A stretch of 64,000 nt of DNA from the NCBI GenBank assembly GCA_018817165.1, contig JAHITY010000124.1:97973-161972 (forward strand), in the 5' to 3' direction. How positions within the stretch are numbered: position 1 is the first letter of the stretch; every line of letters starts with the position of its first letter. The notes under the pieces were generated by a model that was not told the DNA's origin, made no database searches, and saw only the letters and a list, made by a program, of their open reading frames with translations. Positions 4,496-43,081 of the stretch are shown one piece after another. This DNA comes from Candidatus Omnitrophota bacterium. GTDB lineage: Bacteria > Omnitrophota > Gorgyraeia > B26-G9. The position numbers were made by a program, and so were the translations under genes.

Positions 4496-5913
4496 GAGAA
4501 TATTGGAACAGCACTAAGGTAATCTGTACAATCGGTCCGGCTTGCAACAGCCGAAAGGTAATCAAGGAATTAATTCTCGCGGGAATGGATATTGCCAGGT
4601 TTAATTTTTCGCATGGCAAGCCAGCGGATCATGTTAAATATATTAAACTGGTAAAAGCAGTTGCTCAGGAACTTAAATCTCCGGTAGCGATCTTACAGGA
4701 TCTTCCCGGTCCAAAAATCAGGCTGGGAGAGTTAAGTGCCGAATCAATTTATTTGAATCAGGGGCAAATATTTACGCTAACCAGTAAAAAAGTTATTGGG
4801 ACTAATTTGGAAGTATGTGTTAATCATAGTGCTTTTATCAAGGAACTGAAAAAAAATAATATTGTTTATCTTAATGACGGCTTAGTAAAACTGCAGGTGA
4901 TTTCCAAAACTCCCGAAAAAGCAGTTTGTTCGGTTTTGCTTGGCGGCCGGATATATCCGCGTAAAGGAGTCAGCTGTCCAAGTCAGTTTTTTAAAATGAG
5001 CTCAGTTACTCCTTATGACTTAAAATGTTTGAAATACGGCATTGAAGCTGGAGTTGATTTTGTCGCGGTGTCTTTTGTCCAGCAGGCAAAAGATATTATA
5101 AAAGCAAAAAATTATCTAAATAAAAGAAAAAAACAAATTTCGGTTGTGGCAAAAATAGAGCGCAAAGTCGCTTTTCAGGACATTGATAATATTATTAATG
5201 TCAGTGACGTGATTATGGTAGCGCGGGGAGATCTGGGAATTGAGGCTGATTTGGAAGATGTGCCTTTTCTTCAAAAAGAAATTATTAGAAAATGCAATGC
5301 TGTGGGTAAACCGGTTATTACCGCAACCCAGATGCTCGAATCAATGGTCGTCAGTCCTCAGCCAACCCGGGCGGAAGTTACTGATGTGGCCAATGCGATT
5401 CTTGACGGGACTGATGCATTGATGCTTTCAGAAGAAACCGCGGTGGGTAAATATCCGGTGCAGACGCTTAAGATGATGCTGAAAATTGCCAACCGGGCAG
5501 AGGAAAAACTTTGTCTAAAACAAAAAGAATTAAGTTTAGCGGAACCAGACGCGGAAAATTTAGTCAGTGCTTTTAGCCGGGCAGCAGTGAATATTTCCAA
5601 CAAGATAAAAGCCAAAGCGATTATTGCCCCTACGCATAGCGCTCAAGCAATATCCTGGCTGAGCCGCTGCCGGCCGCAAGCTAAGATTGTCGGCGTGACC
5701 ACTGATCCGAAGGTGCTCAAACAAATGATTATGTATTGGGGAGTATATCCTTTATTAATGCCTAGGTTTGCTAAACTGGGGCAAACGCTGGATGATTGTA
5801 TTAAACTAGCGAAAAAAAACAGATTAGTGAATATCAAGGATAATGTGCTGGTAATGCTTACCGAAGATAATAAGGTTTTTTGTTCAAATATAATGGAAGT
5901 CCGCAGGATTTAG
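4492..5913 (+). CDS. pyk: pyruvate kinase
   Basis: TKVICTIGPAC ... IARFNFSHG ... MVARGDLGIE are classic pyruvate kinase motifs. Confidence 0.85.
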   Translation: MREYWNSTKVICTIGPACNSRKVIKELILAGMDIARFNFSHGKPADHVKYIKLVKAVAQELKSPVAILQDLPGPKIRLGELSAESIYLNQGQIFTLTSKKVIGTNLEVCVNHSAFIKELKKNNIVYLNDGLVKLQVISKTPEKAVCSVLLGGRIYPRKGVSCPSQFFKMSSVTPYDLKCLKYGIEAGVDFVAVSFVQQAKDIIKAKNYLNKRKKQISVVAKIERKVAFQDIDNIINVSDVIMVARGDLGIEADLEDVPFLQKEIIRKCNAVGKPVITATQMLESMVVSPQPTRAEVTDVANAILDGTDALMLSEETAVGKYPVQTLKMMLKIANRAEEKLCLKQKELSLAEPDAENLVSAFSRAAVNISNKIKAKAIIAPTHSAQAISWLSRCRPQAKIVGVTTDPKVLKQMIMYWGVYPLLMPRFAKLGQTLDDCIKLAKKNRLVNIKDNVLVMLTEDNKVFCSNIMEVRRI

Positions 5914-40301: not shown

Positions 40302-40358
40302 AACATATTAAGCACTTAAGTTTATATACGCTTAAGTGCTTAATTTTTGGTTTTTTGC
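40302..40358 (+). terminator. rho-independent terminator
   Basis: ttaagcacttaag ... cttaagtgcttaa inverted repeat followed by tttttggtttttt. Confidence 0.5.
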
Positions 40359-40373
40359 TGATTTAGATTTTAT

Positions 40374-40448
40374 GGCGGCGTAGCCAAGTGGGAAGGCAGA
40401 GGTCTGCAAAACCTCTATTCAGCGGTCCGAATCCGCTCGCCGCCTCCA
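40374..40448 (+). tRNA. tRNA-Cys (GCA)
   Basis: Acceptor GGCGGCG/CGCCGCC, anticodon loop cuGCAaa, T-arm agcgg-tccgaat-ccgct, discriminator U, encoded CCA. Confidence 0.8.
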
Positions 40449-40672
40449 TGAACCATTCGCTGTGCTCAGGCTTTGCCCTGTACTGCATTGCAGTACAGGG
40501 TTCATGTCACTGCCAGAAAGAAGAGCTGCGAGCGATGTGCGATTTCCCTCGCCGCCTGCTTTTGACCCAGAGCGAGCGTATTGAGTCGAAAGACCAAGGG
40601 AAAATAAAAAAACAGTAAAAAATGTTGTTATTTTGATATAAAATGTGTTAGAATAACTACTTCAGCAATACT

Positions 40673-40756
40673 GGGTGAGTGGTGGAATGGCATACACGAC
40701 GGACTTAAAATCCGTTGACTGTAATGGTCTTGAGGGTTCGAATCCCTCCTTGCCCA
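40673..40756 (+). tRNA. tRNA-Leu (UAA), type II with long variable arm
   Basis: Anticodon stem acgga/tccgt with loop cuUAAaa; T-arm gaggg-ttcgaat-ccctc; acceptor with two G-U pairs; followed by hairpin ggggtaaa...tttacccc. Confidence 0.7.
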
Positions 40757-40816
40757 TTTATTTTAAACTAGGCAATGGGGTAAAGGTTTTCTGCTTTTAC
40801 CCCATAATCCTAATAG

Positions 40817-40893
40817 GGGCGGTTAGCTCAGTTGGTTAGAGCGTTGCGTTGACATCGCAAAGGTCACAGATTCGAGTTCTGTACCGCCCACCA
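40817..40893 (+). tRNA. tRNA-Val (GAC)
   Basis: GGGCGGTTAGCTCAGTTGGTTAGAGCG; anticodon loop ttGACat; T-arm acaga-ttcgagt-tctgt; acceptor accgccc; CCA encoded. Confidence 0.8.
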
Positions 40894-41196
40894 TAAACCA
40901 CTCGCCAAAAAGCGGCTTGGGTTCATGGCACGGCCATTTAAGAACGAAGAATCTGAAAAGAGGATTTTAGGGAGAAAGATTGCTCCGTCGCTACGCTTGT
41001 CGCAACGAAGATAATTTTGTGCGTTGGTTTCTCCCTATCGGCGTACTTGAACTTCCTGCCATGAACCAAAGCGAAGCTTGGTACATGGCAAGCGGAAGGA
41101 AAAGGAATATTAAGGGAAAACCATAAGGGTTGTCCCTTAAGGAGTGCGCACCTGAGCACGGCGCTGTTTTACAAGCGTTAGCGGAGGGTGCAAACG

Positions 41197-41291
41197 ACAG
41201 ATTGGAGTTCTGTACCGCCCACCATAAACCACTCGCCAAAAAGCGGCTTGGGTTCATGGCACGGTCATTGAAGGAACGAAGAATCTGAAAG
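41197..41291 (+). repeat. direct repeat of tRNA-Val 3-prime end (T-arm, acceptor, CCA) plus 65 bp of downstream flank
   Basis: ~95 bp nearly identical to 40866-40959 (3 mismatches: T-loop C to G, C/T, 1-nt indel). Confidence 0.75.
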
Positions 41292-41344
41292 TAAAACAAA
41301 AACTGGGATTGTTAACTCGTTAACGCGTTAACTGTATAATTTTT

Positions 41345-43081
41345 ATGGTTGATTTATCTACATTAAGACATAGTTGTTCGCATATCATGGCGCAGGCTGT
41401 AACTGAGTTGTTTCCTGAGGTTAAAGTGGCGATCGGTCCTTCGATTGAGGACGGGTTTTATTATGATTTTGAAAAACCTGAGCCGTTTAATCCTGAGGAT
41501 CTGCTGAAAATTGAAAAAGTAATGAAGCATATTATCAAGCAGAATCAGCTGTTTACCAGTGAACAATGGACTAAACAGCAGGCGATCGACTATTTTACGC
41601 AGCACAAAGAAACTTATAAGCTGGAATTGATCGAGGCAATTGCTGATGATCATGTGACTGTCTATAAAACCGGAGATAAGTTTTTAGATCTTTGCCGCGG
41701 ACCGCATATTGGTTCAACCGGAGAGATTAAAGCATTTAAATTATTATCGATTGCCGGGGCTTACTGGCGGGGTGATGAAAAAAACCCCATGCTTCAGAGA
41801 ATTTACGGCACTTGTTTTGAAACTAAAGAATTACTTGATGAATATTTGACCAGACTGGAAGAAGCCAAGAAGAGAGATCATCGAAAACTTGGCACAGAGC
41901 TGGAGCTGTTTGAAATGTCTGATGAAATGGGCGCGGGATTGGTATTGTATCATCCTAAAGGCACGGTATTGCGCGGGATACTTGAAGATTATGAAAAAGC
42001 TGAGCATCGTAAACGGGGTTATCACCAGATAATCGGCCCGATGATCATGAAGTCTGATATTTGGATAAAATCCGGACATTATGATTACTATAAAGAGAAT
42101 ATGTATATTTTCTCAGTAGAAGGCAAAGAATTCGCGATAAAGCCGATGAATTGTCCTGGACATATCATGGTTTATAAATCTAAGAAACGCAGTTACCGTG
42201 AATTGCCATTACGTTTATTTGAACTAGGCACTGTGCACAGACATGAAAAATCCGGAGTATTGCATGGATTATTAAGAGTTCGCGGTTTTACTCAGGATGA
42301 CGCGCATTTATTTTGTACAGCGGATAATCTGAAATCGGAAATTAAAGATATTATTGATTTTGTTATTGATACGATGAAGGTATTTGGTTTTAAAGAATGG
42401 CATATTGAACTGAGTACTCGTCCGGAAAAAAGCATTGGAACTGATGCTGATTGGCAGCAGGCAACTGAGGCTTTAGCTGAATCGTTGAAAGAAAAAGAAT
42501 TAAAGTTTGATATCAATGAAGGTGACGGAGCTTTTTACGGACCAAAGATCGATATTAAATTAAAAGACGCGATCGGTAGGCAATGGCAGTGCGCGACAAT
42601 TCAATGTGATTTTGCTCTGCCGGAGCGGTTTGATTTAAAATATGACGCGGCTGATGGTACTCAGAAAAGGCCGATCATGCTGCACCGCGTATTATTGGGC
42701 AGCTTGGAAAGATTCTTTGGCTGTTTGATCGAACAGTATGCCGGGGCTTTTCCGGTATGGTTGGCACCAGTGCAGTTAAAAGTTGTTCCGATTTCGGAAA
42801 AACAGCATGATTACGCGCAAGCGGTATATCAGAAATTATTTGATTTAGGGATTAGATGTGAAGCTGATAGGCGTAATGAAAAAGTCGGCTATAAAATTCG
42901 CGACGCGGTAAAGCAAAAAGTTCCTTATATTTTGGTTGTGGGGGATAATGAGATTGCTAATCAAACTGTGGCTGTGCGCTATGAACGCGGCGCGGAAAAA
43001 GGCCAGACAGTCAATGATGTTAAATTAGAGGATTTTATTAAGACTATTAACGAAAAGATCGAATCACGAATAGTAGAATAA
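41345..43081 (+). CDS. thrS: threonyl-tRNA synthetase
   Basis: N2 editing-domain motifs HSCSHIMAQAV ... GFYYDFE; class II motifs incl. CRGPH; TATAAT box 5 bp upstream of the ATG. Confidence 0.85.
   Translation: MVDLSTLRHSCSHIMAQAVTELFPEVKVAIGPSIEDGFYYDFEKPEPFNPEDLLKIEKVMKHIIKQNQLFTSEQWTKQQAIDYFTQHKETYKLELIEAIADDHVTVYKTGDKFLDLCRGPHIGSTGEIKAFKLLSIAGAYWRGDEKNPMLQRIYGTCFETKELLDEYLTRLEEAKKRDHRKLGTELELFEMSDEMGAGLVLYHPKGTVLRGILEDYEKAEHRKRGYHQIIGPMIMKSDIWIKSGHYDYYKENMYIFSVEGKEFAIKPMNCPGHIMVYKSKKRSYRELPLRLFELGTVHRHEKSGVLHGLLRVRGFTQDDAHLFCTADNLKSEIKDIIDFVIDTMKVFGFKEWHIELSTRPEKSIGTDADWQQATEALAESLKEKELKFDINEGDGAFYGPKIDIKLKDAIGRQWQCATIQCDFALPERFDLKYDAADGTQKRPIMLHRVLLGSLERFFGCLIEQYAGAFPVWLAPVQLKVVPISEKQHDYAQAVYQKLFDLGIRCEADRRNEKVGYKIRDAVKQKVPYILVVGDNEIANQTVAVRYERGAEKGQTVNDVKLEDFIKTINEKIESRIVE

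Follow-up and report, generated by a model that had tools for sequence, protein, structure and literature searches.

Between a tRNA cluster and thrS in a 64,000-nt stretch of Candidatus Omnitrophota DNA (hereafter, the window), the 3′ end of a tRNA-Val gene occurs twice, which raises the question of whether the repeat marks a lost integrated element, a plain duplication, or a module that belongs to the tRNA genes themselves. The intact tRNA-Val(GAC) gene lies at 40817..40893 (ARAGORN; Rfam tRNA 70.9 bits), on the + strand like all features described below unless stated otherwise. Its last 28 nt (40866-40893) and 65 nt of flank, together 40866-40958, were found again at 41197-41290 (BLAST E = 3e-37), bearing out the duplication described in the initial annotation. 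The two arms, 93 and 94 nt long, differ by the three substitutions counted there and by a 1-nt indel that went uncounted. One substitution turns the T-loop TTCGAGT of the first copy (40866-40958) into TTGGAGT in the second (41197-41290), as alignment of the arms confirmed. No third copy of the tRNA-Val tail was detected within the 64-kb window. The order of tRNA-Val, core and pseudo-tRNA-Val was also seen in three further independent assemblies (loci L081, L086, and L087), so the arrangement is real and no assembly artefact. To call it a tandem duplication is fair as a description, the array at tRNA-Val amounting to 1.28 copies of a 331-bp unit.

As to what the repeated unit is, we favor, at a probability of roughly 0.6, a tRNA-linked repeat of the RtT type, i.e., a non-coding module of ~200-330 nt inside the tRNA-Leu/tRNA-Val transcription unit.

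Parts of the element

The module is built, in order, of a spacer after the CCA, a G-block (inverted T arm and acceptor), a core composed of hairpin H1, a linker and hairpin H3, and a 28-nt pseudo-tRNA copy. By alignment, the first repeat arm (40866..40958) holds the tRNA-Val 3′ end, a mini-palindrome (hereafter, E2), and the G-block. E2 copy 1 (40894..40936; CCA-TAAACCACTCG...GGGTTCATGG) begins exactly at the tRNA-Val CCA and makes up most of the 65-bp flank. A pattern scan found E2 twice in the window against 0 expected, and comparison with relatives placed it directly after tRNA-Val in L091 and L092 as well; it was absent from the sister genome L086. E2 is a member of a separate small repeat family. 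The G-block (TTTAAGAACGAAGAATCTGAAA; 40937..40958) repeats the tRNA-Val T arm (reverse complement, CAGAACTCGAATCTG) in inverted and degenerate form, and is complementary to the 3′ ends of both the tRNA and the pseudo-tRNA.

Between the repeat copies, covariance model R1 delineated the conserved structured core at 40953..41148 (114.9 bits), ~120 nt of which form the shared part with two covarying hairpins. H1 pairs 40969-40977 with 41028-41036 and corresponds to the hairpin gggagaaag...tttctccc picked out at first reading, which is real; the purine-rich linker (GGAAGGAAAAGGAATA; 41094-41109) is followed by H3 (41110-41140). Two insertions are specific to the window. The first, of 45 nt, sits in the H1 loop (40982..41026) and was absent from L086, L081, L087, and L026 in alignments; the second is a 38-nt E2-like palindrome (CCATGAACC...GGTACATGG; 41056..41093) between H1 and the linker, absent from the aligned L086, L081, and L087. 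The element has itself been invaded by smaller palindromes. The variable segment at 41148..41196 bears a faint likeness to tRNA D and anticodon arms, is missing from the L087 and L026 copies, and is no conserved part of the element family.

The right-hand end of the element is the pseudo-3′ end of tRNA-Val (41197..41224), with T arm, acceptor 3′ strand, and ACCA. It matches 40866-40893 at 27 of 28 positions, the exception being the T-loop C to G, and this G is common to the window, L081, L086, and L087. A second unit starts at 41225..41290 with E2 copy 2 (41225-41267) and G-block copy 2 (41268-41290), the latter having a counterpart in L081 at 5806-5824. Elsewhere in the cluster, the remnant of a tRNA-Cys-linked copy (40516..40557) consists of the last ~22 nt of the core (GAAAGAAGAGCTGCGAGCGATG) and a pseudo-3′ end of tRNA-Cys (GTGCGATTTCCCTCGCCGCCT), with 17/21 identity to 40425-40445. 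By eye, this remnant was judged a homologue of the terminal part of the L089 Leu-linked copy. The native flank after it resembles L084.

A consensus scan placed a promoter-like site at 40625..40654, upstream of tRNA-Leu and tRNA-Val, and no + strand terminator-like site between 40654 and 41345; transcription from this putative promoter would include the element too. In that scan, a strong promoter-like site also fell downstream of the element, ahead of the thrS ATG. Across the compared loci, the spacers in this cluster of tRNA genes are very prone to indels.

Several more familiar identities for the segment were rejected. Rfam searches of the window, L086, L087, L026, and L089, at the gathering score and at permissive E-values, returned the three tRNAs only, and the T-box, tmRNA, YrlA, 6S, and ribozyme readings were dropped. 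ARAGORN and Rfam likewise gave only the three true tRNAs, with no tRNA-like or tmRNA gene in the element. A tmRNA-like fold fails in that its acceptor stem, with the 5′ strand after H1, is not kept in L086 or L087; the L026 pseudo-end is without the 5′ strand of the T stem. Nor is the segment a complete decayed duplicate of tRNA-Val, or of tRNA-Leu and tRNA-Val, given a global alignment against shuffles of z = -0.2 (L086 copy) and the absence of the tRNA-like 48-nt piece from the L087 and L026 copies. Protein coding was dismissed as well: the only overlapping ORF, 102 aa on the minus strand, is unconserved, and the lineage inserts of 45 and 38 nt break the frames.

Conservation, covariation and distribution of the core

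Beyond its architecture, the element displays conservation well in excess of the neutral level, covariation on the + strand, pseudo-ends that match at three tRNAs, and presence or absence among relatives. The initial annotation leaned towards a decayed island or remnant, or a local duplication, and for the first of these the data point the other way: the block is 97-98% identical among the window, L086, and L081, where the fourfold-degenerate sites of thrS are 54-71% identical, so it is no decayed island or neutral scar. Relative to L087, block identity is 88-92% and fourfold-site identity 31-36% (0.92 and 0.35, respectively, for the window versus L087). That the copies are so alike could also stem from a recent spread of the element and not from selection on each copy where it stands.

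The further suggestion that the segment may preserve an ncRNA gained ground, given the strong conservation and the covariation of the hairpins. In H1 and H3, 8 of 21 pairs were changed on both sides with 91% paired, a result that 0 of 500 shuffles equalled, in a sample of ~5 effectively independent copies, all from thrS-linked tRNA clusters. The G-U pairs in H1 and H3 fit a + strand RNA. Copies of the element fold more stably than shuffles (z = -6.1, -4.7, and -3.8, with -3.8 for the window core), and that of L026 has extra hairpins with GNRA caps.

A helix between the G-block and the pseudo-end is predicted to close the element. In the window, the G-block duplex reaches -18.2 kcal/mol with the pseudo-Val end (z = -3.0) and -21.6 with the tRNA end, i.e., the G-block pairs better with the true tRNA end than with the pseudo-end. 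Over the few independent copies available, the z of the G-block/pseudo-end duplex was -6.7 in L086, -4.3 in L081, -3.0 in the window, -2.9 in L087, -1.7 in L026, and +0.7 in L089. This closing helix is weak in the window and L026 and absent for the L089 Leu copy; in L087, it shows one compensatory A-U to G-C change. The element also carries many GGA motifs, one of them made by the T-loop C to G, a pattern suggestive of a putative CsrA-type sponge.

A total of seven copies of the core were found in Omnitrophota-type MAGs by nhmmer and model R1 (77-137 bits), always 3′ of a tRNA gene and on the same strand, five at Val, one at Leu, and one at Cys. R1 gave nothing beyond these seven over 91 sources (707 kb). 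Dispersed core copies were detected neither in the 64-kb window nor in 80 more distant loci, and the core was absent from three further ThrS-anchored loci (L090-L092). Val-linked orthologues occur in L086, L081, and L087, and the Val-linked copy of the distant L026 lies ~570 nt from its own tRNA-Val, with other palindromes in between. Paralogues stand after tRNA-Cys in L087 and after tRNA-Leu in L089, two sisters (ThrS 92.5%) with the element at different tRNAs; lying upstream of other tRNAs, these copies show that the element is not specific to thrS.

Where the end is clear, the pseudo-end copies the adjoining tRNA, which is Val in five cases and Leu in the sixth. The L026 pseudo-end reads TTCGAGTTCACTACCGCCCACCA against ...TTCGAGTCCACTACCGCCCACCA in its own tRNA-Val, the L089 copy ends in pseudo-Leu, and the window remnant (40516-40557) in pseudo-Cys; the Cys-linked copy of L087 showed no clear pseudo-Cys end.

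Relatives without an insert between tRNA-Val and thrS, sought as a check on the integration scar, do exist: L083 and L084/L085 (88-89% ThrS identity), and L088-L092. Core and pseudo-end are absent from L083, L084, and L091, the G-block being kept there, and tRNA-Val lies ~12 nt or less from thrS in L088 and L090, with no element. In general, the G-block is conserved in 8 relatives, core-less ones included. Unit counts are 1.28 in the window and L081, 1.0 in L086 and L087, and ~0.25 in L083, L084, and L091. The arms are alike within each genome and differ between genomes; read from the sequence, the two 71-nt arms of L081 differ at the T-loop C/G only, and E2 is in both repeat arms only in the window. 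A duplicated arrangement shared by all relatives, together with covariation, had been named as the mark of a conserved structured leader rather than an insertion scar; covariation was found, but the arrangement is not universal among relatives.

Likeness to the E. coli RtT repeats and a proposed origin

The tRNA-linked repeats of E. coli tyrT have been known for decades, functionally unexplained and treated as an enterobacterial curiosity; older literature puts the array after tyrT at 3.14 units of 178 bp. As a positive control, the Rfam model RF00391 recovered RtT at 133-137 bits in E. coli, after tyrT/tyrV and in the lysT operon, and exact 17-nt 3′ ends of tRNA-Tyr and tRNA-Lys recur ~100-180 nt (start to start) downstream. 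PMC3318445, citing Bosl and Kersten (1991), gives rttR as one repeat unit of the tyrT operon, and a recent preprint still calls the function of RtT unknown (bioRxiv 10.1101/2024.07.17.603846). Our literature search for a tRNA-linked element in Omnitrophota found no relevant description.

Like the Omnitrophota element, RtT comes right after a tRNA gene, on its strand and inside a tRNA operon. In both families the right-hand end repeats, exactly or nearly so, the final 17-28 nt of the tRNA before it, CCA included, and this pseudo-end varies with the tRNA (Tyr or Lys for E. coli RtT; Val, Leu, and Cys in Omnitrophota). Near the 5′ end, each has an inverted degenerate copy of the T arm and acceptor that could pair with the pseudo-end, the reverse-complemented T-loop being AUGAGAAG in RtT, ACGAAGAA in the window, and ACGAGAA in L026. 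Both occur as fractional tandems, tyrT-tyrV holding four RF00391 matches and four extra tRNA-Tyr 3′ ends. The identity that continues past the tRNA, at first thought atypical, has a parallel too, in that the lysQ repeat of E. coli runs 36 nt into the flank.

The two families also differ. RtT folds into one closing helix and two inner hairpins over 130 nt, whereas the Omnitrophota element has H1, H3, a purine-rich linker, and variable inserts; the Omnitrophota pseudo-end is longer, spanning the whole T arm (28 nt) with its conserved T-loop C to G; and the phyla are distinct (Omnitrophota versus Enterobacteria). RF00391 had no match in the window or L086 (gathering score, E <= 10) or in L087, L026, and L089 (E <= 1), and R1 had none in the E. 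coli RtT loci. Because neither covariance model detects the other family, the likeness is architectural and not shown homology. That the same layout turns up without detectable sequence similarity in an uncultured and distant phylum suggests a solution that recurs, and not a chance event.

How such a repeat might arise can be outlined for the RtT-type reading. Unequal homologous recombination would act on the two kinds of repeat, tRNA end and G-block, to expand, contract, and homogenise the array, and L083, L084, and L091 would then be collapsed arrays of ~0.25 unit with spacer and G-block left. Since tRNAs resemble one another in the T arm, exchange there would carry the unit to neighboring tRNA genes and give pseudo-ends with a T-arm half like the element and an acceptor half like the new tRNA. 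E2 probably entered the spacer in the window lineage only and is now in both arms because recombination, as proposed, homogenises them; its copying into both arms by concerted evolution would likewise be the reason why the repeat identity extends 65 bp past the tRNA. The module would be co-transcribed with the tRNAs and released by tRNA-processing enzymes as a discrete structured RNA. By analogy with the Rfam RtT consensus, which closes with GgGaaGGAU...AUCCuuCcC and then ccaCCACCA, the G-block may pair with the pseudo-tRNA end and leave a CCA-type tail.

More tentatively, RtT-type modules might form a general, phylum-spanning class, with the Omnitrophota family as an independent second example, although we lean against so broad a claim. 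Members of such a class would be structured RNAs within tRNA operons with both ends templated on the neighboring tRNA, would spread by T-arm recombination among tRNA genes, and would persist under selection because they help to process or regulate the tRNA operon. If this were true, the Omnitrophota family would allow the role of RtT, a question 40 years old, to be approached by comparison.

Competing explanations

When genomic islands are called, a second copy of a tRNA 3′ end is routinely taken for an integrase att site. In one rival reading, the arms would be the attL/attR scar of an element placed by a tyrosine integrase in the T arm of tRNA-Val, now integrase-less, CIME-like, and mobilisable in trans, an explanation that we regard as unlikely. 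The direct repeat does start in the T arm, and its presence varies among close relatives, as at tRNA att sites and in CIME remnants. However, the initial annotation was right that no integrase lies between the repeats, there is none at the locus, and the 237-bp interior has no recombinase, cargo, or conserved ORF and is instead conserved and structured, amid housekeeping neighbors in conserved synteny. The single T-loop difference on the pseudo-copy in four genomes would suit a past insertion, as would the L086 pseudo-copy, downstream of which lies the flank seen after the intact tRNA of L083 and L084; yet the "empty" sites of L083, L084, and L091 are part-filled, still carrying the G-block. 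The element sits at a different tRNA in each of the sisters L087 and L089, and the ends that mimic Leu and Cys have a chimeric look (T-arm half element-like, acceptor half tRNA-like), both compatible with integration, but one ~120-nt core at three tRNAs is unlike the behavior of tRNA-specific integrases. RNA-type covariation, with G-U pairs, and the GNRA loops speak for an RNA, and the E. coli analogue consists of tandem arrays inside tRNA operons. A phage or plasmid origin was rejected, with two pattern scans of viral contigs and blastn of phage records returning no match. The initial interpretation as a whole is partly supported. This element and E. coli lysQ indicate a second common cause of tRNA-end repeats for island-finding pipelines to recognise.

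MITEs and REP-like repeats resemble the element in being small, non-coding, and patchy, with imperfect inverted termini (here, the G-block versus the pseudo-tRNA end). It differs from them in that its termini are copies of the neighboring tRNA and not fixed terminal inverted repeats, and in that it showed no target-site duplication of the usual size and no dispersed copies in the 64 kb and 80 distant loci.

We consider it very improbable that the element is a cis-regulatory leader of thrS, i.e., a T-box-like or tRNA-mimic operator for ThrRS. It stands just before thrS and on its strand, as a leader would, but a strong promoter-like site separates it from the thrS ATG, close relatives with the same thrS operon are without it, and paralogous copies lie between tRNA genes and not before a protein gene. 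The tRNA-like sequence, with a segment complementary to a tRNA 3′ end, would fit an operator, except that the mimicked tRNA is Val, not Thr, and that no T-box or other Rfam leader was matched; that relatives without the core still have the G-block ahead of thrS favors a leader.

Largely refuted, and the least credible of these readings, is a plain, functionless local duplication or slippage of the tRNA-Val 3′ region whose apparent conservation would come from recency alone: the array can be read as 1.28 units of 331 bp and the tRNA-cluster spacers are very indel-prone, but the core is without a counterpart at the locus (alignment to the tRNA-Leu..tRNA-Val stretch, z = -0.2), is common to genomes with saturated silent sites (window versus L087: 0.35 at fourfold sites, 0.92 in the block), and has paralogues at other tRNAs and hairpins that covary.

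A repeated tRNA-Val 3′ end upstream of thrS

Three tRNA genes on the forward strand, tRNA-Cys (40374-40448), tRNA-Leu(UAA) (40672-40757) and tRNA-Val(GAC) (40817-40893), all called by ARAGORN and Rfam, precede thrS (start 41345, ORF 41345-43081, + strand). The last 28 nt of tRNA-Val and 65 nt of its flank (40866-40958) are repeated at 41197-41290 (BLAST E = 3e-37), as the initial annotation had reported, and no further sequence resembling this segment was detected in the 64-kb window. Only three differences between the copies had been counted; we found three substitutions, one of which converts the T-loop TTCGAGT to TTGGAGT, plus a 1-nt indel. An assembly artefact was excluded, given that the arrangement is present in four independent assemblies.

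A database protein annotated as originating in a Candidatus Omnitrophica/Omnitrophota MAG matches the window ThrS at 100% identity; the best GTDB representatives reach no more than 63%. Neighborhoods of thrS in closer relatives were retrieved by looking up exact proteins and by a single pattern scan of metagenome data, with ThrS identities to the window of 94% (L086), 90% (L081), 89% (L083), 88% (L084/L085), 74-75% (L087, L088, L089) and 72-73% (L090-L092). All retrieved relatives share the synteny dfp, pilin-like gene, tRNA-Cys, tRNA-Leu, tRNA-Val, thrS-infC-rpmI-rplT-pheST. Downstream of the pilin-like gene, a near-perfect 19-nt inverted repeat followed by a T-run (40307-40344; ATTAAGCACTTAAG...CTTAAGTGCTTAAT), conserved in L081, L083, L086 and L087, is probably the terminator separating that gene from the tRNA cluster.

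The window ThrRS (578 aa) has recorded Pfam domains tRNA_SAD, tRNA-synt_2b and HGTP_anticodon; a TGS domain is listed neither for it nor for any retrieved Omnitrophota relative. No Shine-Dalgarno sequence was found before the window thrS. A strong promoter-like site (41311-41347; TTAACT, 17 nt, TGTATAAT) ends 4 nt upstream of the ATG, suggesting that the thrS mRNA is leaderless or nearly so. This site overlaps a palindrome, GTTAACTCGTTAACGCGTTAAC, similar to one in L081.

Conservation and predicted RNA structure of the element

In the window, L086, L081 and L087 alike, tRNA-Val is followed by a short spacer, a G-block (..AAGAACGAAGAATCTGAAAAGAGG..) and a core, and the arrangement closes with a pseudo-3′ end of tRNA-Val that carries the TTGGAGT change in all four. 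From the G-block to the pseudo-CCA, identity is 97-98% among the window, L086 and L081 and 88-92% to L087; at fourfold-degenerate sites in the neighboring thrS the corresponding values are only 54-71% and 31-36%. The tRNA-Leu/Val spacer has 69-88% identity and many indels. The block is thus conserved well above the neutral rate, which contradicts a neutral scar, and with it the decayed island or remnant that the initial annotation put forward alongside a local duplication. Two window-specific insertions, one of 45 nt within the loop of hairpin H1 (40982-41026) and the other a 38-nt palindrome (41056-41093), occupy peripheral positions. In the pseudo-T-loop, selection may maintain the conserved C to G change, or the change may simply fall outside conversion tracts.

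The possibility of an ncRNA, also raised earlier, gained support from the core hairpins H1 (9 bp) and H3 (12 bp). In a model-guided alignment these were 91% paired, with 8 of 21 pairs changed on both sides; none of 500 column shuffles matched the pairing or covariation value, and slid-partner controls gave much lower values as well. The + strand has several G-U pairs, which on the opposite strand would be A-C mismatches. Single-sequence folds were well below shuffled controls (z = -6.1, -4.7, -3.8), and the copy in the distant relative L026 has extra hairpins with GUAA and GGGA loop caps at variable positions. A consensus scan placed a promoter-like site upstream of tRNA-Leu and detected no terminator-like site on the + strand before thrS, making it plausible that the element is co-transcribed with the tRNAs.

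At the left end, the G-block (TAAGAACGAAGAATCTG) is similar in sequence to the tRNA-Val T arm when the latter is reverse-complemented (CAGAACTCGAATCTG); in L086 and L081 the block is preceded by GGTGG, the complement of CCACC. The corresponding segment of L026 (GTAGGACGAGAACCAC) tracks that locus's own T stem, and that of L089 tracks the tRNA-Leu T arm. Predicted duplexes of the G-block with its own pseudo-end reached -23.9 kcal/mol in L086 (z vs shuffles -6.7), -24.8 in L081 (-4.3), -18.2 in the window (-3.0), -17.2 in L087 (-2.9), -17.6 in L026 (-1.7) and -5.6 in L089 (+0.7), and pairing with the genuine tRNA end was as strong or stronger. The G-block (window 40937-40958 and 41268-41290) is retained between tRNA-Val and thrS in L083 (5924-5942), L084 (515-533), L085 and L091 (2318-2336), all without core and pseudo-end. 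In those genomes the genuine tRNA-Val 3′ end would be its only possible pairing partner; the block may mark a processing site, represent a collapsed repeat unit or have another role. Logan short-read contigs of close relatives stop in the G-block or tRNA cluster (L082 1-30; starts of L084 and L085), consistent with repeats breaking assemblies.

tRNA linkage, turnover and homogenization

An nhmmer profile, followed by a covariance model of the core (R1), recovered seven copies, roughly five of them independent and all from one locus type. Five are Val-linked (window, L086, L081, L087 and L026, whose ThrS identity is 56%), one lies between tRNA-Leu and tRNA-Val in L089, and one between tRNA-Cys and tRNA-Leu in L087; none was detected in 80 more distant loci, viral contigs or phage records. 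The right end tracks the upstream tRNA: in L026 the terminal TTCGAGTTCACTACCGCCCACCA agrees with the T stem of that locus's tRNA-Val (CCACT, not TCTGT), and a pseudo-tRNA-Leu tail closes the L089 copy. The Cys-linked copy of L087 showed no clear pseudo-Cys end; a Cys-linked remnant in the window (40516-40557) consists of the last ~22 nt of the core and a pseudo-tRNA-Cys tail (17/21 positions match), directly followed by native flank. Both pseudo-Leu and pseudo-Cys tails seem chimeric, joining a common element-type T-arm half (CGATGT[T/G]CGATT[G/T]CCCT) to different acceptor halves. By these comparisons the element is linked to tRNAs, not to thrS. The sister genomes L087 and L089 (ThrS 92.5%) carry it at different tRNAs, so it is acquired, lost or relocated over short time-scales.

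Other repeats crowd the L026 tRNA-Val/thrS spacer. Among them are a ~80-nt element after both tRNA-Val and the pseudo-tRNA-Val end (284-360, 1123-1200) and a segment, AATATTCCTTTTCC (413-447, 825-860), which is reverse-complementary to the purine-rich linker conserved in the family.

About 43 nt of the 65-bp flank (40894-40936, 41225-41267) is a separate mini-palindrome, E2 (CCA-TAAACCACTCG...GGGTTCATGG), which starts right at the CCA, whether that of tRNA genes or that of the pseudo-tRNA end, and incorporates this CCA into its stem; its pattern was observed twice in the window, with zero expected. E2-family palindromes (CCA-TRAACCAYTCG...GGGTTCATGG) lie at window 40446-40515, 40891-40936, 41056-41093 and 41222-41267, and downstream of tRNA-Val in L091 (2200-2230) and L092 (2392-2440). 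Absent from the sister genome L086, E2 entered the window lineage after their split, and is now in both repeat arms. The two 71-nt arms of L081 have a spacer other than the window's, and the T-loop C/G is the sole difference between them. Arms alike within a genome and different between genomes indicate concerted evolution, whether by unequal crossing-over or by gene conversion. If the locus is treated as a tandem array, it comprises 1.28 units in the window and L081 and 1.0 in L086 and L087; L083, L084 and L091 have collapsed to a fractional unit of spacer and G-block, the product expected from recombination between two tRNA-end copies. Other CCA-abutting palindromes occur in L083, L084 and L086 (CCATTTTGC..GCAAAATGG) and in L081 and L092 (CCATAAATGAGCACAT..); such palindromes may be mobile, or fast-evolving 3′-trailer hairpins.

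The anatomy, conservation above the neutral rate, + strand covariation, tRNA-dependent right end, turnover between close relatives and homogenized arms are shown by the comparisons; the following model goes beyond them. The repeated tRNA tail and G-block would drive unequal recombination, setting copy number, erasing the unit in some lineages and spreading insertions in the spacer to both arms. T arms resemble one another among tRNAs, and exchange inside them could transfer the unit to neighboring tRNA genes, in keeping with the chimeric make-up of the pseudo-Leu and pseudo-Cys tails. The element RNA might be cut from the tRNA transcript with a CCA-type tail.

An integrase scar or CIME-like mini-element would account for the repeat boundaries and turnover, but is unlikely given the missing recombinase, a single core serving several tRNAs, "empty" sites that retain the G-block, and RNA-type conservation. 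We regard a thrS leader as very improbable, since some copies lie between tRNA genes and no leader model matched. A functionless local duplication is scarcely credible in view of copies at other tRNAs, hairpin covariation and block identity above silent sites.

Comparison with tRNA-linked repeats of E. coli

The repeats at E. coli tyrT have been described as 3.14 units of 178 bp; the name RtT, "tRNA-linked repeats", was reportedly given by Rudd (1999). One unit of the tyrT operon is rttR, as stated in a passage of PMC3318445 citing Bosl and Kersten 1991; in E. coli K-12 MG1655 it is annotated immediately 3′ of tyrV. RF00391 (RtT RNA) matched four times at the tyrV/rttR locus (133-137 bits) and five times in the lysT operon. 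Its consensus closing helix (GgGaaGGAU...AUCCuuCcC, then ccaCCACCA) pairs an inverted T-stem/acceptor copy with the pseudo-tRNA-Tyr tail. Exact 17-nt copies of tRNA 3′ ends follow both tRNA-Tyr and all five tRNA-Lys genes at about 100-180 nt, start to start, and unit tails track the tRNA (Tyr tails in Tyr-linked, Lys tails in Lys-linked units). At lysQ the repeat spans 54 exact nt, 36 of them in the flank, with copies 156 bp apart, the same signature of a repeat reaching past the tRNA as in the window.

The Omnitrophota element shares with RtT its position, a tRNA-tracking pseudo-tail, an inverted copy near the 5′ end, a fractional tandem array and homogenized arms, whereas the core folds differ. 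RF00391 did not match the element copies at permissive thresholds, nor did R1 match the E. coli RtT loci with filters off, ruling out membership in RF00391. On these sequence comparisons we consider it probable (roughly 0.6) that the element belongs among RtT-like tRNA-linked repeats and has a conserved structured core, the likeness being architectural; tRNA-linked repeats are an old kind, but none had been known in this region of the tree.

In the serV-argVYZQ spacers of E. coli (NC_000913 2816500-2819500), where the RF00391 threshold was not reached, three of the four arg genes are followed, ~120-135 nt downstream, by an exact 18-nt copy of the 3′ end of tRNA-Arg; E. coli tRNA-linked repeats are thus broader than the Rfam family.
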